A DNA stretch of 64,000 bases from a virus (Duplodnaviria; Caudoviricetes), in IMG/VR virus record IMGVR_UViG_2630968963_000002, positions 4,204-68,203 of that record; one strand, 5' to 3'. The position numbers and the translations under genes were made by a program. Position 1 is the first letter of the stretch. Each line of letters opens with the position of its first letter. This document shows positions 3,001-58,035 of this stretch, one piece after another. Under the pieces are notes generated by a model. The model was not told the origin of the DNA, did no database searches, and was given only the letters and a program-made list of their open reading frames with translations.

Positions 3001-4334
3001 GATAAATTCCCATTTACAAGTGTTTGAATTTTACCAACTTCAGCTTCTACTGTGCCTATTTTAGCGGATACAGCTTCTAGTTGAGTTATACTTGCTTTAT
3101 TTGCTTCAAGTTCATTTATTTGTGCAGTGTGGGTTACTGTAAGTTTATCTATAACTCCTACATTAGCTTTTAATGTTCCAAACTCACCTTCTATAGCTGT
3201 TAACTTTCCAGTTATAGTTACATTTTCTGCAATTAAATTTTCAATTGTGGCGTTAACTGCTTTAAGATCTTCTATATCCGCCTTATTAATTAATGCTTCA
3301 TTTACAATTAACAATTCAGTTACAACTCTATTAACTTTATTACTTAGATTACCAGTTGAATTAAATTCATTTTTATTTTTACTTTCACCCTTTGCACCTA
3401 TTTCAGATGTAAGTCCCCCATTATAGTTGAACTTTTGAGATAGTATAGGAATATTTCTTTTTACACCTTTATGATCTGTAAGAGATATAATATCTCCAAC
3501 ATCTAGAGATAAATCCCCCTGCCACTTCATCGAATATCCTACATACTCAATACTTTTTAACTTATTATATATATCTGTAAGAATAGAATCATTAACCCAA
3601 GGATTTTCAAAAGTAACTTCCATAGAAGAATTACTTAAAGTACCTTTAGTTAACTCTTTTTCATTTACCTTGCAAGTAACTGCACCTATCCTATAAACAT
3701 TTTCTTCAGTTTTTAAGTCTATATAATTTTCATCTGTTATTGAGTAATCTATAGTTTTAAGTGTATTTATAGTAAATTTTCCATCTCTAGTTATGTATGC
3801 ATTACCAGCACATAAACTAGATATAAAACCAAGTGCTTCTCTACAAGTAAAGCCTTCCAACTTATTTAAATTATAAGAAGGAAGGCTTCCTGTAAATTCT
3901 ACTCCAGTAATTTGAGATAATTCATTAACTATATTTTTTAATGATGCAGTTTTGCCTAATTTACTAAAATAAGGTTTTTCAAACTTCATCATATTATCAA
4001 AACATGTAAGTTTTATAGAGTAATCAGTTTTTTCAATATCATCTATATTAAAATAACCCATTAATACATATTCAATTTTTGAACCTACATTTAAACCTAT
4101 TTCAACTTTAACTATAGAGTTACTGTAAATAGTATTATTTGTAGATAATGTTAGTTCTAATGACTTTGAAACTGCTGACCCTATACTAAAACCATCTGAA
4201 GGTTGAACATCTTCTATAGTTATATTGATTATATCAGCATTGGTATATATATTATCTCTTATGGTTACTTTACATTCAAAAGATCTAGAAGGCTTTTTTA
4301 TTTCTAATAAATATGATGAACTTACATTTTGCAT
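1..4334 (-). CDS. Large tail tip/tail fibre (receptor-binding) protein, 3' end outside window
   Basis: Absent from ORF track because no stop lies in the window. ATG at 4334 with AAGGTGA SD, MQNVSSSYLLEIKKPSRSFEC; N-terminus resembles 36646..38082; last visible residues TSRKYQVFLSVYGEGIANVIERYPTHFIIKGTPNL, typical of Firmicute phage fibre C-termini. Only the ends were translated by hand. Confidence 0.85.
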   Translation of the reverse strand, partial: MQNVSSSYLLEIKKPSRSFECKVTIRDNIYTNADIINITIEDVQPSDGFSIGSAVSKSLELTLSTNNTIYSNSIVKVEIGLNVGSKIEYVLMGYFNIDDIEKTDYSIKLTCFDNMMKFEKPYFSKLGKTASLKNIVNELSQITGVEFTGSLPSYNLNKLEGFTCREALGFISSLCAGNAYITRDGKFTINTLKTIDYSITDENYIDLKTEENVYRIGAVTCKVNEKELTKGTLSNSSMEVTFENPWVNDSILTDIYNKLKSIEYVGYSMKWQGDLSLDVGDIISLTDHKGVKRNIPILSQKFNYNGGLTSEIGAKGESKNKNEFNSTGNLSNKVNRVVTELLIVNEALINKADIEDLKAVNATIENLIAENVTITGKLTAIEGEFGTLKANVGVIDKLTVTHTAQINELEANKASITQLEAVSAKIGTVEAEVGKIQTLVNGNLSSENIQAGGITSDKLTIANGFITNAMIANLDVSKINAGDISTNKFRIKSDDGGIEIVGATQQFKDKNNKVRVQIGRDKNNNFTFSLFDETGTGVLIDHTGIKEGAIADDLIISDMIASDAVGEKQINYSSFITGFNKDTNTNTIKSTKIMLNNQNQTLDVAFNQLKTQADDTKSLTESHSTTIGVMQGQITTAINNTQIVKDGQTILLKDDYNRTVQTVNSMNSTIVSHTTKINEHTGKITGVETRVNTVERDLDGITARVSSTEKNVTTVTNTANAANSNATNALNIANSANSKIDGLEIGGRNIVKDTGTSKSIIGTGTTNRTGCTYHFTVPYLTDIKGKELIVVFDWKYEGENPSGTFYMQTGEPQYGLVTGTQTISPTNTKGTVKNIWKPAMERDTKSVYIRTDNMVGTFTISNLRVYFGTKDIGWTPAPEDVQTQIDTNKTEISSTKSKVSSIETNLSSITSRVSEVEKTQTTVDGKVTSLQTRMQSAEQKLTKEGLTTIISNHYTTSNDVNGIVTSKGYQTHSQVQQTVDKLQAKFTANGGYNKLYNSAFLTGDIRNWSNLGTCTRTVTSSTTSGFAKCLKIVADGASQGVYQIVDNLVVGKQYTLSALVKATSGKTGIQVYHDDKYLHSYTSPEEKYQVLSITFKATTTTASIRLGTLGSGTSGTYYYTGVLLTEGELVEPWSPHPSEVYDGITTIDKDGITVTSSNVKSKTTISANGFKIIKTDTNEEVFKVNSSGRLELYGIFRTRNGDRKSGYFGENQVTFYNWWSDTNESIAYFYGGKTSANKRSADVVGKDVFSLGVGEPGSGTKVLEGSSSTLNIYKNTNFNNYKLKEVNSINEDTIQSTFVERIVIRSSQVNSNHDSGNLNLNYWKGYNVTSSVEVKVCNGNNDGTRGKLTCQDFKAYGTKNACVQTSVGYVDINAYETADYYFGDIGETILDNDGYSYVYIDSIFTETANTSRKYQVFLSVYGEGIANVIERYPTHFIIKGTPNL

Positions 4335-5450: not shown

Positions 5451-5548
5451 TTATATCACCTCCCTATTTATTAACTTAAGTATAATATAAATTCATAATT
5501 TATACAAATACTACCATATTTAATTATATTTTACTGTTACCACTCCAA

Positions 5549-5896
5549 TTACTTCTCTATAAAATTCATTTTTAAACCTTTCCAAAGTACTTTCCCATTT
5601 TTTATATACAATGCTGGTACGGATCTATCACCAACATACATCGCTTTGGTTTCAAATCGTCCTGTCATTGGATCAGGATAATAAACATTAAAAAAGACAC
5701 CTGATACAGCATTCAATAAAGTTGAACACTCTTCAGCTGTCAACGGTGGCCATTCACAGTTTAATTTTCGCTTTACAGCAATTCTATCTCTTAACAATTC
5801 CCCTCTAGCATTCCTATTACTTTCACCATCTATATCCTGAATATCTACCTGAAATACTGAAGGGACTGATATACTTACACTATTTATTTTTAACAT
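5549..5896 (-). CDS. Distal-tail-like protein (DUF6711-like)
   Basis: Follows tape measure; clear homologue of 38091..38444 (PSVFQVD.QDID, RNA.G, YPDP, Y.GDRS). Confidence 0.8.
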   Translation of the reverse strand: MLKINSVSISVPSVFQVDIQDIDGESNRNARGELLRDRIAVKRKLNCEWPPLTAEECSTLLNAVSGVFFNVYYPDPMTGRFETKAMYVGDRSVPALYIKNGKVLWKGLKMNFIEK

Positions 5897-9661: not shown

Positions 9662-10039
9662 TTATCCAAACATACTCGCCATCATTTGTTCGAATTCTTT
9701 TACTTTTTGTGCCTTTTCTTCATCTGTCATTTCTATTGTTTTATTATTTCTATTTCTCCACTCATTTCTTATTTTGTGTTGCTCTTCAGTAAAGTTATTA
9801 AGAATATCTTTATCTTCTTCAGCTCTTATACTGACTATTTGACCAAGTGGAGTTTCAGTCATAATACCACTTAATAGAGTACAAAATTCATTCCAACTCA
9901 TATCATCTACAAGTCGTAGTCTTATGCCATATTGAGTTAAAAAACTTGCTTCGATTAACTCCCAATCTTCAAATAAATCATACCATTTATTTTCTTCTTT
10001 TCTTTTTACGAAAATTATTATTTTTATTTGTACTTTCAA
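9662..10039 (-). CDS. Gp15-like tail assembly chaperone, downstream frame
   Basis: WYDLFEDWELIEASFLTQYGIRL..MSW.EF..LL.G..TPLGQIVSIRAE motif; probably reached by frameshift. Confidence 0.85.
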   Translation of the reverse strand: MKVQIKIIIFVKRKEENKWYDLFEDWELIEASFLTQYGIRLRLVDDMSWNEFCTLLSGIMTETPLGQIVSIRAEEDKDILNNFTEEQHKIRNEWRNRNNKTIEMTDEEKAQKVKEFEQMMASMFG

Positions 10040-51107: not shown

Positions 51108-51609
51108 CTTCGTCTAAGCTTCCTACATCATCAATTATCGTTATGGCTGAATTACTATTGACTTCTACTTTATCCGTAAACATACCTAGATGTTTTCCTA
51201 ACATATCTAAAGCTTTGAGCTTATCATAAAACTTAACTTCTCTTTCTTGTATGTCCCCATCATCTGTAGGAATAGATTTTATTTTTACTCCAGATATTAC
51301 TGCTAAATCATCATCACTAGCATTTTCTTTTACTGTAGCTTGATTAAAATTAATTACATCACTTGGATTTACAAAGGCTATCTTAGCTATCTCTCTTAGC
51401 ACTCTATCTTGATTTATGCCTGTCCTTCGACTTCTTTCAGCTATAGCTTTATCTATCTCATTTTTTATTTCAGGTTTTTTCAAGTTTTCATTTCCTATAG
51501 AATAAGCTGTATCTGGACTATATCCTGCCCTAATAGCCGCTTGAGTGGCATTAAGGTCTACCAAATATTCTTCTATAAATCTTTTTTGCTTATTCGTTAA
51601 TCTAGCCAT
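51100..51609 (-). CDS. terS: Terminase small subunit
   Basis: LTNKQKRFIEEYLVDLNATQAAIRAGYS; start MARL by GAGGTGG SD. Confidence 0.95.
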   Translation of the reverse strand: MARLTNKQKRFIEEYLVDLNATQAAIRAGYSPDTAYSIGNENLKKPEIKNEIDKAIAERSRRTGINQDRVLREIAKIAFVNPSDVINFNQATVKENASDDDLAVISGVKIKSIPTDDGDIQEREVKFYDKLKALDMLGKHLGMFTDKVEVNSNSAITIIDDVGSLDEDA

Positions 51610-53999: not shown

Positions 54000-54029
54000 G
54001 TATATTCCCCCTTGGTGATTATATGACTG

Positions 54030-54239
54030 CTATATATAGTATTCTTCTAAATCTACTTGTGGTGTAAATGTTTTACAACCGCATTCACATTTATACACCT
54101 TTCTATTTTTTATCTTATCTATTTCTACTGTAATATCTAATTCATTTTTAACAACTCCACACTCACTACATCTCAAGTCCATCGTATCTTTATCCTTTGC
54201 TACAAGATATATTACATTACCTTCTTTTATTTTTCTCAT
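54030..54239 (-). CDS. Small zinc-ribbon protein
   Basis: CSECG...CECG; AGGAGG SD. Confidence 0.7.
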   Translation of the reverse strand: MRKIKEGNVIYLVAKDKDTMDLRCSECGVVKNELDITVEIDKIKNRKVYKCECGCKTFTPQVDLEEYYI

Positions 54240-54670
54240 TCTCGTTTCTCCTCCTGCTTTTTATTACACTTCTTCCTTTTAATTAACGGATAGTTTAAAT
54301 GGTTATAAGGTTTATAAATCTCGGGATTTCTTTCTAACCTATATAATTCATTTTTTTAAGTCCACTATTCAGTGTTCTCCTACCACAACTCACTATAAAT
54401 AATGTATTATCTAAATTTCATATTCTGTCAACTCGCATACCAGTAATCTCTTTTATTTGATTGACTTTTTCTAGTTTTGTATTTTATTTTATAATGTCTA
54501 TTTCATATGTCATCTCAAAAATTCTATCAATTTTCATTTCCAACTTTTTTATTATATCCTTTCTTACCCATTTTTATCAATTCTTAAAAGTTATTGATTT
54601 ATTTTGTAATATTTTGTCTCTTTTATATCTTTACTCTTGATATTTACAAAGTATTTAACCTATTAAATAG

Positions 54671-55093
54671 TTAAAATGGTATCTCATCATCATCTATAGC
54701 TTGAAATCCTTCTGGGTCTAATCCTCTTGGTGGTTCATAACTTGGTGTAAATGTTTGATTATTTTCTTCTGATTTTTTTATGCTTTCTAATGCTTGTACA
54801 CTTTTAGCAGATACTTTTGTAATACTTCTTTTTTCATCATCTTTCATGTATTCTTCTTTTCTAATACTCCCTTGTATTGCTACTAATCTACCTTTACTTA
54901 TGTAATTATTAACAAAATCAGCAACTTTACCAATAACTTCTACTGGTATAAAATCTACTGGTATTTTACTTTCTTTATCCTTGTAATCTCTATTTACTGC
55001 TATTGTAAATTTTGAAGTGCTTGATCCACTTCCTGTAATAACTCCTGGTTCTGGGTCTTTTGTTAATCTTCCAACTAATACTACTTGATTCAT
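54671..55093 (-). CDS. ssb: Single-stranded DNA-binding protein
   Basis: VGRLTKDPE...DDDEIPF. Confidence 0.95.
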   Translation of the reverse strand: MNQVVLVGRLTKDPEPGVITGSGSSTSKFTIAVNRDYKDKESKIPVDFIPVEVIGKVADFVNNYISKGRLVAIQGSIRKEEYMKDDEKRSITKVSAKSVQALESIKKSEENNQTFTPSYEPPRGLDPEGFQAIDDDEIPF

Positions 55094-55119
55094 GCTTTTA
55101 CATCTCCTATGCTATATTT

Positions 55120-55548
55120 TTAAGCTGTTTTCTTAGCTTCTTTTCTCTTCTTCTTCAATTCCTCATACTCTATCCAGCCATATTCATCACCATATTTAAT
55201 GCTTTTTTGTACCCATTTGAGTGTTTCTGGATAAAGATAATCAAACATCTTTTTTCTCATAATACCTTGCTGTGTTTCCATGCCCTTCACATCTATATAC
55301 TCAACTTCACCATTGTTATGATAAATAGCAAAATCAACTGTATAAGTTATAGCTCTATGTGTCTTACCATATTTCTTAAAGCTTGGCTGTAATTCAAATT
55401 TTTGTTGTAATCCAAAGTCTTTTATTTTACCTTCTTCTTTTAGCTTTTTAAGGTGTAAATAATATTCAGCTTCATGTTTACTATCAAATTTGATTCCATC
55501 AACTTCAACTTTTTTATTTCCATATTTATTTGCCATTTTATGCTCCAA
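55120..55548 (-). CDS. DUF1064 family PD-(D/E)xK nuclease (probable junction resolvase)
   Basis: NKYGNKK.EVDGIKFDSK.EA..ELQP..Y.VDF..DVKG. Confidence 0.88.
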   Translation of the reverse strand: MEHKMANKYGNKKVEVDGIKFDSKHEAEYYLHLKKLKEEGKIKDFGLQQKFELQPSFKKYGKTHRAITYTVDFAIYHNNGEVEYIDVKGMETQQGIMRKKMFDYLYPETLKWVQKSIKYGDEYGWIEYEELKKKRKEAKKTA

Positions 55549-55797
55549 TCTCCAATCTATCTGATATATCTAAGTTTTTATAATATTCAAGTTGTCCTTT
55601 ATTTTTCATGTGTGTCATTACATCGCTGCTGCAAGTTCCAAGTAGTTGAATGGTGTTGAATCATTATAATTAATATATTTAGGTTTGTATTGTTCGACTG
55701 TGCTGTATTTATGTTTCATAATATTCAATCCCCCTCTTTGGTCCAGTAGAATTTCATCCCCTGGAATATTTATAATTAATCTACACATACTATTACT

Positions 55798-55879
55798 GTT
55801 TATAGACTTACCGATACATGTAATATTTACACCGACTCATAAATAACCTTATCAGAAACGATAGGGTTATTTATTTTTT
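55798..55879 (+). ncRNA. Candidate sRNA, cassette 1
   Basis: Between -10 CATACTA (55786-92) and terminator 55840-55879; start inferred. Confidence 0.6.
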
Positions 55880-55926
55880 AAAAATTCCCCTGGAATAATT
55901 TATTTCAAACTACACATACTATTAGT

Positions 55927-56000
55927 AACTTATCGATACATGTCACTTTTTAACCAACTCGTATTAACCTTATCGGAGACGATAGGGTTATTTATTTTTT
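55927..56000 (+). ncRNA. Candidate sRNA, cassette 2
   Basis: Between -10 (55915-21) and GAGA-loop terminator 55965-56000. Confidence 0.6.
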
Positions 56001-56047
56001 AAAAATTCCCCTGGAATAATTTATTTTAAACTCCACATACTATTAGT

Positions 56048-56124
56048 AATGACTCATACTTTCTTACCGTATTTGGATATATAGTATTTAACCTTATCAT
56101 CAATGATAAGGTTATTTGTTTTTT
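56048..56124 (+). ncRNA. Candidate sRNA, cassette 3
   Basis: Between -10 (56036-42) and terminator 56089-56124. Confidence 0.6.
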
Positions 56125-56159
56125 CTAGAAATTTCTGCTATCATAGTTGCACAGTATCC

Positions 56160-56576
56160 TTAATCAAATTTACCTTTCTGACTTTCTAATAAGATTTTTT
56201 CTAATTCATCTGGAGCGTATCCAGCAAATGAATTATTTACATTTGCTCCTGCACCTTTTTTATATGTTTTTTGTATATTATTGTTATTTTCGCTAACACT
56301 ATTAGTAAACCTATTTTGTAACTCAAACGCTTTGAGTTCTTCATAACTGGTTACATTCTTTTGTAACCAGTTATTTATTATGCCTTTAAGAAAATTGAAT
56401 TGTAACTTTCCTTTATCAGTACATATAACTAATGCTTCTTTAAAAAGTTCTACATCAATTTTTTCTGATATTTCTTTAATCCATTCTGCTAATCTTAAAT
56501 AGTTTTCATATGTAGGATCTTCTTGTGCTGCTGCATTCAAAATTTTATGTTTATTTATTCCAACGCTGTTATACAT
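56160..56576 (-). CDS. DnaD-domain replication protein
   Basis: ELFKEAL..FNFLKGIINNWLQKNVTSYEE. Confidence 0.8.
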   Translation of the reverse strand: MYNSVGINKHKILNAAAQEDPTYENYLRLAEWIKEISEKIDVELFKEALVICTDKGKLQFNFLKGIINNWLQKNVTSYEELKAFELQNRFTNSVSENNNNIQKTYKKGAGANVNNSFAGYAPDELEKILLESQKGKFD

Positions 56577-56647
56577 TTTGTTTCCCCCTTAGCTGTTGAA
56601 ATTACCCCACAAGACTTGTAGGGTAATCCCCTTATATTTTTAAAGCT

Positions 56648-57622
56648 TTAACTTGGTATTTCTAAATTATTTTCTCTTGCATAATCTATAACCATTTTCT
56701 TGACTGGTTCTCCACTAAGAGAATCTAAACCATGTTCAATAGCTCTTAAATAAGTGTCATAAATTGTAGTCCTTTTAAACTTACTATCTTGATTTTCTTT
56801 TACTATCCTTTCAAGTTCATCAGGACTATACTTATCTATCCTACTATTTATGTTATGAAATCTTGTCCTAACTTTAGGTATAAACGCACTTACATTATTT
56901 TTATGTGGTTTATAATCCTCTTTTATAGCCTTTATAAGGAAACCTACAACACTTTTACAACCTGTATTTTTAGTAAGTATTAATTTTTCTTCTAAATAAT
57001 CAATATCTTTATTAGTATCTTTAAAAGCATTATGTATTTTTAAAAGTTCTTCTTCTGATAAATTAAAATAAGATTTTATTTTATCAACAACCACCACGTC
57101 ACATTCTAATTTGTTGTTGTTATTATTATTATTGTTATTGTTATTATTATTGTTATTGTTATTCCCCATAGTCTTTCCATACTCTATTGATACAGTATCT
57201 ATAGGGTATTCATAGGGTATAGATAGGGTATCTATACTGTATTCATATTTATTACAACTATCTATGAATAACTTTAAGAATTCTTTGTTTTTAACTTGAT
57301 TTAACTCTTTTTCTATGCATTTCTTTACTTTAATACTGTCTATCCTATTATGTTTTATCCAATTCAGTATAATTATCTCTCTTGTTTCATCGCTATATTT
57401 TATTTTTCCGTATTCTTCAAATCGTTTTAAAAGTTTATCTACTGTTTCACGATTATAACCTGTTTCAGTTTCGATAATTCTTTTAGGCAACTCATATATG
57501 CCACACTGACAAGTTTTACTATTAGTCATTAGATAAATATAGAAATACTTTTCTTCTGGTGTAAGCTCCAATACAAATCCATCTTGCCAGAATTCAACGT
57601 GTATTTGTCTAAATTTTGCCAT
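56648..57622 (-). CDS. Replication initiator (replisome organiser)
   Basis: MAKFRQIHVEFWQD..TPEEKYFYIYLMTN..QCGIYE; poly-Asn linker. Confidence 0.88.
   Translation of the reverse strand: MAKFRQIHVEFWQDGFVLELTPEEKYFYIYLMTNSKTCQCGIYELPKRIIETETGYNRETVDKLLKRFEEYGKIKYSDETREIIILNWIKHNRIDSIKVKKCIEKELNQVKNKEFLKLFIDSCNKYEYSIDTLSIPYEYPIDTVSIEYGKTMGNNNNNNNNNNNNNNNNNKLECDVVVVDKIKSYFNLSEEELLKIHNAFKDTNKDIDYLEEKLILTKNTGCKSVVGFLIKAIKEDYKPHKNNVSAFIPKVRTRFHNINSRIDKYSPDELERIVKENQDSKFKRTTIYDTYLRAIEHGLDSLSGEPVKKMVIDYARENNLEIPS
57113..57240. repeat. Poly-Asn (AAT/AAC x17) tract plus 11-bp ATAGGGTAT iterons (probable origin)
   Basis: 17 Asn codons at 57113-57163; ATAGGGTAT at 57201, 57212, 57223 inside inverted ACAGTAT/ATACTGT. 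Confidence 0.8.
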
Positions 57623-58035
57623 TATCTATCCCTCACTTTTATGTATCTAATTAAATCTTCTACCGTTCTTAAGTTGTTTGATATAGTTTCCCTATAAGTT
57701 ATATATTGTTTACTTCTTATAGACTCATAAAGCTCCAAAAACTCTAATTTGCATTTTATATATTCATAATCTATTGAAATCCATGGATATTTTAAATTCC
57801 ATTCATTTATACTTTCTTCTAATTTCATTGATGAGCTTTTTAAGTTATTAAATTTTTTGTATGATACTACTAAATTATTAGGACTAGAAGAACCTCCCAT
57901 ACTTCTAGGGAATATGTGATCTATTTGTACATCATCTTTTGATAACTCTAATTCAGTGTAAAAACACCTATCTCCATCTCTCCACTTTACATAGTCATAA
58001 GTTGTTATTTTTCTTTTATTTGATAAATCATTCAT
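57622..58035 (-). CDS. HNH endonuclease
   Basis: RCFYT..IDHIFPRSMGG...NLV....N..K. Confidence 0.85.
   Translation of the reverse strand: MNDLSNKRKITTYDYVKWRDGDRCFYTELELSKDDVQIDHIFPRSMGGSSSPNNLVVSYKKFNNLKSSSMKLEESINEWNLKYPWISIDYEYIKCKLEFLELYESIRSKQYITYRETISNNLRTVEDLIRYIKVRDR

Follow-up and report, generated by a model that had tools for sequence, protein, structure and literature searches.

Why would a phage carry three similar short units, each with its own promoter-like and terminator-like sequence, head to tail and pointed against the genes that surround them? The question is raised by a prophage of the gut spore former Terrisporobacter, in a 64,000-nucleotide stretch of the IMG/VR provirus record IMGVR_UViG_2630968963_000002 (hereafter the window, meaning the whole stretch that was analysed; about 28% G+C), in which three such units lie on the plus strand at positions 55757-56124, among early and replication genes. 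The reading that we favour, tentatively and with a probability of about 0.42, is that each unit would specify a small untranslated RNA that acts as a cis-antisense brake on the early operon, gated by a sigma factor of the SigF/SigG type and comparable to the OOP/pO system of phage lambda.

A tandem array and its cassette family

The units start 129 and 121 bp apart. Tandem Repeats Finder returned a period of 121 bp (89% matches over 55806-56049), and matches to a profile and to a covariance model placed the units at 55757-55882, 55886-56003 and 56007-56127, confirming the two periods given in an initial annotation of this DNA. Each unit opens with GAATA-N17-CATACTA and continues with an AU-rich core of 38-49 nt, a hairpin of 11-15 bp and a run of T. 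In unit 1 (55757-55885) the -35 box GAATA lies at 55764-55768 and the -10 box CATACTA at 55786-55792, and a predicted RNA at about 55798-55879 would end with a terminator hairpin (55839-55874) and a T tract that extends to 55879. The same boxes are found at 55893-55897 and 55915-55921 in unit 2 (55886-56006; predicted RNA at about 55927-56000, hairpin with a GAGA loop at 55965-55990, T tract up to 56000) and at 56014-56018 and 56036-56042 in unit 3 (56007-56127; predicted RNA at about 56048-56124, hairpin at 56089-56114, T tract up to 56124), all on the plus strand.

Exact copies of GAATA-N17-CATACTA occur three times in the 64-kb window, all of them in the array and all on the plus strand, against 0.06 expected by shuffling; three copies were reached in 0 of 100 shuffles. 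Between 54000 and 58000 there are four terminator-like sites (0.6 expected, sd 0.7), three of which are the ends of the units. The predicted RNAs of units 1, 2 and 3 fold with z-scores of -3.8, -2.8 and -3.7 relative to shuffled sequences, and their first 40 nt or so at the 5′ end are largely without structure. No open reading frame (ORF) is common to the 26 cassettes of the family described below, on either strand. A leaderless micro-ORF was considered and set aside, as 11-mers resembling MTHTFLPYLDI are found in near-identical cassettes only and four of the 26 cassettes lack any ATG. At the level of sequence, then, the picture drawn in the initial annotation holds in its main lines: small autonomous plus-strand transcription units, each with the GAATA-17 bp-CATACTA promoter and a hairpin followed by a T tract, with no ORF in common and antisense to an early operon whose flanking genes are all on the minus strand. 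Each unit would accordingly be a self-contained small gene with a promoter of the form GAATA-N17-(C/T)ATA(C/A)TA, transcription starting some 6-8 nt past the -10 box and giving an untranslated RNA of 72-82 nt that stops at a strong intrinsic terminator with a GNRA-type loop.

Further members were gathered from IMG/VR contigs and Terrisporobacter genomes by pattern scans and profile search, and 26 distinct cassettes were aligned and used to build the covariance model. This model matches 5 of 12 Terrisporobacter genomes and 0 of 100 other genomes of the same family (5/112 overall). Searching prophages for the promoter-terminator scaffold, as had been proposed in the initial annotation, thus yields a genus-restricted family with one to four copies per phage. 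T. muris DSM 29186 carries a near-identical three-unit array (L079), T. mayombei DSM 6539 has one and two units in two prophages, and the array stretch also turned up in DNA sequencing runs of gut samples, among them rodent, pig and bovine ones. Among the related loci (labelled L with a number), the copies in L008 and L009 are spaced 100-850 bp apart, with a gene intervening in L008. A search of Rfam with E values up to 10 gave a single match, to STnc370, which scored 23 bits (E 7.5), below the gathering score of 54, and lay on the terminator, and a distant blastn search of deposited phage genomes with the array gave no match.

A promoter-only scan of viral contigs returned chance matches, with a cassette in 0 of 111 newly fetched loci among the matches listed, and a hairpin-only scan of genome contigs returned mostly chance palindromes among the matches listed. 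A weak covariance-model match at 51263-51374 in the window (28 bits, E 0.064) falls inside the small-terminase ORF and was taken as chance. A second conserved antisense GAATA-N17-CATACTA site was noted in L028 (1276-1304, plus strand) and L012 (8120-8148, minus strand). It lies between other genes of the operon, next to one that encodes 257 aa, and no clear terminator follows it.

Across the 26 cassettes, mean column identity is 0.98 in the -35 box, 0.91 in the T tract, 0.88 in the -10 region and 0.79 in the spacer, and reaches 0.93 in the hairpin, in a set for which most members were retrieved with a pattern that fixes the hairpin arm sequence. The core, at 0.73, is the least conserved segment. 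The -35 box reads GAATA or GTATA in 24 of 26, the two boxes are 17 nt apart in 25 of 26, and at -10 there are 20 cassettes with CATNNTA and 5 with TATAMTA. The L015 and L021 groups have a wholly different spacer and still keep both promoter boxes in place; a rewritten spacer between kept boxes is the signature that a real promoter would leave.

The structure has a strand. In the alignment, 99.3% of the hairpin cells are paired. The loop-closing pair, which lies in the free part of the search pattern, is A-U in 15 cassettes, G-C in 10 and unpaired in 1, and at another stem position 19 cassettes have U·G, 6 have U-A and 1 has C-G. The G·U pairs and the GAAA, GCAA, GAGA and GUAA tetraloops occur on the plus-strand RNA only, and the minus-strand folds of units 1 and 2 contain a C·A mismatch. 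Judged by these folds, the G·U pairs, the GNRA loops and the exchange of A-U for G-C fit a plus-strand RNA alone.

Promoter type and candidate sigma factors

GAATA-N17-CATACTA matches exactly what we take to be the consensus of the forespore sigma factor sigma-G. For sigma-G and sigma-F together we assume GHATR or GNATA at -35 and CATNNTA at -10, 17-18 nt apart, and all three units of the window conform to this consensus; the proposal that the promoter fits SigG and is close to SigE is thereby retained. The consensus in C. difficile is reported to resemble the one in B. subtilis very closely, and a sigma-E-type pattern (ATA, 16-18 nt, CATA..AT) fits the units likewise, as ATA-N17-CATAnTAT (PMC3789822).

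For comparison with promoters of the host, the regions upstream of the small acid-soluble spore protein (SASP) genes, gpr, spoVT and spoVAC were inspected in three Terrisporobacter genomes. In the same frame one SASP gene has GAATA-17 nt-GAAATTA, another has ACATG-N17-CATAATA, and spoVT has GTATA-17 nt-AAAAATA; no clear boxes were seen upstream of spoVAC in the three genomes. The SASP and spoVT boxes lend weak support to a forespore reading, so loose a box frame being common in AT-rich DNA.

It is also conceivable, if unlikely, that the same RNAs are made from a weak sigma-A promoter or under a phage-encoded sigma factor, independently of host sporulation, and serve, for example, in immunity or anti-defence when expressed in the lysogen, or in feedback on the phage's own SigF/SigG-like sigma factor. 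Three of the five TATAMTA variants of the -10 box are TATAATA and so contain a perfect TATAAT, and TTGAAT stands at the -35 position in three cassettes. The invariant positions (G..A.A at -35 and A.TA at -10), however, appear to suit the forespore type, GNATA/CATNNTA, better than the sigma-A type, TTGACA/TATAAT, and a sigma-70 scan did not call the GAATA-N17-CATACTA sites. A sigma-70 reading of the minus strand was dropped, as it offers one 9-of-12 site (GTGACA-17-AATAGT), in unit 2 only and not conserved.

The case for a phage-encoded sigma factor comes from the relatives. In L009, L012, L015, L021, L014, L029/L030/L033 and L178 a gene for a SigF/SigG-like sigma factor is found downstream, one or two genes from the cassette, and the best NCBIfam matches of the relatives' sigma factors are SigF/SigG models, in each case below the cut-offs of these models (L009 3061-3801; L015 8640-9371; L021 6954-7925; L157 3864-4589; L178 2420-3121). 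The sigma factor of the L021 type (323 aa) has a second copy of region 4. Since relatives carry phage sigma factors of this kind, the promoter need not report host sporulation alone. Phage homologues of SigF/SigG are known and can activate sporulation genes and drive sporulation-type promoters, according to Schwartz et al. Against such a factor, the phage of the window yielded 0 matches to a sigma homologue, none was found in the fetched parts of eight relatives (L008, L018, L022, L024, L028, L066, L077 and L017), and L157 has a sigma gene yet no cassette.

Converging on the replication genes: cis, trans or DNA element

The genes that flank the array (replisome organizer and DnaD-like protein on one side, DUF1064 and SSB on the other) are all on the minus strand. 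In the order of minus-strand transcription, the array is preceded by RecT, an HNH nuclease, a 324-aa replisome organizer (phrog_6251; 56648-57622) and a 138-aa DnaD-like protein with the C-terminal domain PF07261 DnaB_2 (56160-56576), and it is followed by a 33-codon ORF (55618-55719), the DUF1064 gene (55120-55548) and the SSB gene (54671-55093) of the same operon and, farther on, by a phrog_36 regulator and the terminase. Unit 3 borders on the DnaD-like gene at the 3′ end of the latter, 36 nt from its stop codon, and this gene is part of the sense transcript against which the cassettes run. The search of 54000-58000 gave no terminator on the minus strand, so early transcription should cross the array in the antisense direction.

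This arrangement recurs. At all 18 of 18 loci an antisense orientation relative to the neighbouring genes is combined with a position after the replication module. The rightmost cassette adjoins the 3′ end of the replisome-organizer or DnaD-like gene. The adjoining organizer has one of two unrelated N-terminal types, PF09681 and DnaD-like phrog_6251, and in the second prophage of T. mayombei the replication module ahead of the cassettes is a different one. The final 20-25 codons of the organizer overlap the cassette in antisense at 8 of 14 loci, the overlapping tail (...WEQELLEKPNNPIIADKVKYY...) being antisense to the 3′ flank of the cassette, the hairpin and the start of the core. This tail is seen in organizers of the PF09681 type (L018, L021, L030, L012, L022, L017, L014 and L055). 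The nucleotides of the hairpin are invariant in the overlap loci across organizers that differ elsewhere, and a single amino-acid change in the tail, from Pro to Leu, coincides with a change from G·U to A-U in the RNA stem; it therefore seems to be mainly the RNA structure that is constrained rather than the protein tail. In the DnaD-like type, which includes the window, the same sequence is found beyond the stop codon and hence without coding overlap. In L008 the reading of the tail carries on in frame past a TAG, which suggests that modules have been exchanged at this point.

These same observations are what could be cited for an element that works as DNA, whether a replication origin, a set of binding sites for replication proteins or a module boundary used in phage recombination. 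It always sits where the replication module ends, its 3′ flank and hairpin are common to phages with unrelated organizer N-termini, and the in-frame continuation in L008 points to exchange at this place. We consider such an element very unlikely. Many phages have a single cassette and hence no iteron array, and G·U pairs, GNRA loops, a T tract and a promoter of fixed spacing are strand-specific features of RNA. Moreover, classic iterons and an AT-rich tract are found inside the organizer gene: in the window an AT-rich (TTR)n tract at 57111-57161 is accompanied by iterons of about 11 bp and inverted repeats at 57179-57247, and the organizer homologue of L009 has the same layout at 5455-5573. 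The inside of the organizer gene is the usual location of the origin for this gene family. The phage origin is thus probably at 57111-57247, which makes the array unlikely as origin, and an iteron-type origin in the array itself (repeats of about 10-22 bp by an AT-rich tract) was rejected in view of the single-cassette loci and of the iterons at 57179-57247. The (TTR)n tract encodes a run of about 17 Asn in the 324-aa organizer, and the inverted repeats are 25-30 nt long.

If the element works as RNA, it may act on the transcript that it faces or on targets elsewhere. The initial annotation had proposed the latter, with the variable cores, and two motifs in them called A and B, serving as modular seeds against host or phage mRNAs or proteins, as decoys or as antitoxin mimics. 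The unstructured 5′ 40 nt beside a terminator hairpin is a common build of small RNAs. CTTACCG and GACTCAT(A) are indeed shared by units 1 and 3 in swapped order, which only 72 of 20,000 mononucleotide shuffles reproduce, and unit 2 has mismatched versions of both. By eye, a C/U-rich run resembling CTTTCTT can be made out in about 15 of the 26 aligned cores; an anti-Shine-Dalgarno role for these runs was dropped, as they lack complementarity to GGAGG. The motifs and their exchange were therefore correctly seen, but across the 26 cassettes neither of them is a conserved module. In the family alignment the 5′ GACTCAT of unit 3 stands at the position of GACTTAC and AACTTAT in units 1 and 2, and an indel or a duplication would explain the apparent shuffle as well as modular seeds do. 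The cassettes are also mosaic between phages, the promoter of unit 1 being that of the first L009 cassette (L009a) and the core of unit 2 resembling the core of the same cassette, which argues for recombination among cassettes rather than designed shuffling of seeds.

Modular seeds acting in trans gained no support from further comparison. Seeds are usually the best conserved part of a small RNA, and here the core is the least conserved. The best predicted duplexes of the three cores with 134 translation-start regions of the phage have energies of -21.1, -18.9 and -22.8 kcal/mol, no better than those of shuffled cores, which average -19.6, -20.2 and -20.6 kcal/mol. The conserved motif that precedes the hairpin shows no enrichment relative to control on either strand of four host genomes, and, as the sole motif tried for a mimic of a CRISPR repeat, it led us to reject that possibility as well. 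A type I toxin-antitoxin system was rejected because no small toxin ORF lies opposite or adjacent to the cassettes, the neighbouring 33-codon ORF being a truncated homologue of a 165-aa protein, and a type III (ToxI-like) system because each unit has its own promoter and terminator and no plus-strand gene follows. We regard a battery of RNAs acting in trans as improbable.

With the promoter and terminator conserved and the core free to vary, action in cis is the most likely mode; this pattern is what a predicted cis-antisense RNA would entail and the opposite of what trans-acting seeds would. As the cores pair no better than shuffled ones, cis-antisense action or transcriptional interference is favoured over modular seeds. 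According to the cis-antisense reading, the units would converge on the early/replication operon at the junction just past the replisome-organizer genes, and their RNAs would pair with the early transcript that reads through the array, to which they are perfectly complementary whatever the core. Alternatively or in addition, transcription of the cassettes may collide with early transcription. Either route would lower the expression of the 3′ end of the organizer and of the genes downstream, and with three tandem copies the dose would be higher. Activity of a sigma factor of the SigF/SigG type would switch the brake on; here this would be the sporulation sigma factor of the host, the phage having none of its own; in relatives with a SigF/SigG-like gene one or two genes downstream, a negative feedback loop is possible. 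A more specific version, which we think rather unlikely, is that a forespore-sigma-gated antisense battery, directed at the phage's own replication and late-regulator operon, keeps the phage silent while its genome is packed into the spore, the same units being tied in sister phages to a phage-encoded SigF/SigG-like sigma factor in a feedback loop.

A number of observations weigh against the cis-antisense brake. The sigma assignment rests on the consensus that we assumed and is ambiguous with sigma-E, and a weak sigma-A reading, TGGAAT-N18-CATACT, can be made. In one host genome GNATA-N17-CATAMTA occurs 27 times, against 14 for a reversed control, and these 27 matches mark no obvious spore genes. 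The predicted RNAs of the window stop 36 nt short of the replication-gene ORF that they face, so that they overlap no coding sequence here. The cassette is missing from L157, a close relative whose DnaD-like gene is 90% identical to that of the window: at 3340-3370 of this natural cassette-free variant, CCCCTGGAATA passes directly into the 3′ end of the DnaD-like gene, and the cassette would hence be dispensable. The hairpin-fixing search pattern inflates the apparent conservation of the hairpin, and part of the core beside the hairpin is fairly conserved, which a model in which the core is simply irrelevant does not predict. As for RNA, three of four runs gave no signal. One metatranscriptome run gave two short contigs at a depth of about 3.6-3.9, one of which begins upstream of the -10 box and spans the terminator and the next promoter; such a contig is no discrete small RNA and could reflect DNA or read-through. 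Taken together, the four runs count neither as expression nor as silence.

Some features of the neighbourhood may be recorded separately. The 33-codon ORF at 55618-55719 has a strong ribosome-binding site, is divergent from unit 1 and shares 52% identity with residues 1-33 of proteins of 165 aa in relatives (L021 7939-8436); it looks like a truncated gene, homologous to the N-terminal part of these proteins. In the leader of this next minus-strand gene, a hairpin at 55743-55764 (CCAGGGGA...CUACUGG; arms CCAGGGGA...UCUCCUGG) has one arm adjoining the -35 box of unit 1 and is 4-6 kcal/mol stabler as minus-strand RNA because of G·U pairs. It is found at the same place in L008, L009, L012, L015, L018, L022, L055, L021, L178 and L157, with compensatory changes in its arms (CAAGAGG/CCTCTTG in L178, CCGGGGG/CCCTTGG in L055); it is missing where the neighbour is YopX and retained in the cassette-free L157. 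On the plus strand, the DnaD-like coding region contains, about 220 nt past unit 3 at 56343-56374, a perfect hairpin of 13 bp with a T-rich stretch behind it, which has a counterpart in L008 at about 9820-9860. This hairpin may serve as a second stop for antisense transcripts that read through, or may simply reflect the conserved coding of NNWLQKNVTSY.

Relation to known antisense RNAs and meaning

The closest known kind is the cis-antisense small RNA of phages, such as OOP and sar. The OOP RNA of lambda is about 77 nt long. Lambda pO is convergent with pR, lowers transcription from pR and influences replication (PMC3985674). Like OOP, the cassettes would produce a short untranslated RNA that converges on the early operon beside the replication genes, and an own promoter with an intrinsic terminator in this orientation is what we find, as far as sequence can tell; OOP is also antisense to the 3′ end of the upstream ORF, an overlap that the cassettes show in 8 of 14 loci but not in the window, where a gap of 36 nt intervenes. 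The two have no sequence relation, however, and the cassettes lie after the replication genes and not before them, have a promoter of the sporulation-sigma type, occur in one to four copies and, in the window, overlap no coding sequence. P22 sar and P1/P7 c4 are antisense RNAs that either extend over the ribosome-binding site of the gene they regulate or are targeted to it. They resemble the cassettes as small antisense RNAs from an intercistronic region of an operon that control a downstream gene, but the cassette RNA would start about 70 nt from the start codon of the next gene and head away from it. Multicopy sibling RNAs such as LhrC1-5 and Qrr have one seed in common and regulate the same targets in trans. 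The cassettes would resemble them as a set of similar small RNAs that each have a promoter and a terminator to themselves, in part arranged in tandem; in the cassettes, in contrast, the transcribed core is the variable part.

What is new is the promoter of sporulation type, the amplification to one to four copies and the link to phages that carry SigF/SigG-like sigma factors. The initial annotation knew of no described system with this layout, which agrees with the searches of Rfam and of deposited phage genomes and with the literature searched, in the accessible portions of which we found no description of it.

To our knowledge, the mechanism by which phages of spore formers spare sporulating cells or travel in spores is known in very few cases, chiefly that of phi29 and Spo0A. 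Lytic development of phi29 is reported to be suppressed in sporulating cells through Spo0A sites, and the cassettes would be alike in that a phage of a spore former reads the development of its host and restrains early transcription or replication for entry into the spore (PMC2731898). They would differ in that phi29 relies on binding sites for the Spo0A protein, with no RNA and no compartment-specific sigma factor. There is a likeness as well to phages with sporulation-like sigma factors, in that prophage relatives of the window encode a member of the SigF/SigG family; the accessible part of that work describes no phage promoters or small RNAs under such sigma factors (Schwartz et al.), and the phage of the window has no sigma factor.

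A sigma-gated antisense unit of this kind would be a compact element of 120 bp that is easily tested, its promoter lending itself to reporter fusions. Copy numbers of 0, 1, 2, 3 and 4 occur in nature, and there are culturable carriers among the type strains of T. muris, T. mayombei and T. petrolearius. Should the promoter prove ordinary, the cassettes would be a new family of OOP-like phage antisense RNAs, confined to one genus, useful for annotation and unsurprising. If they are sigma-gated, they would provide the first candidate phage promoter for phage-encoded SigF/SigG-like sigma factors, and the more specific version, a forespore-gated battery, would be the first RNA-based, sigma-gated link of a phage lytic programme to the sporulation of its host.

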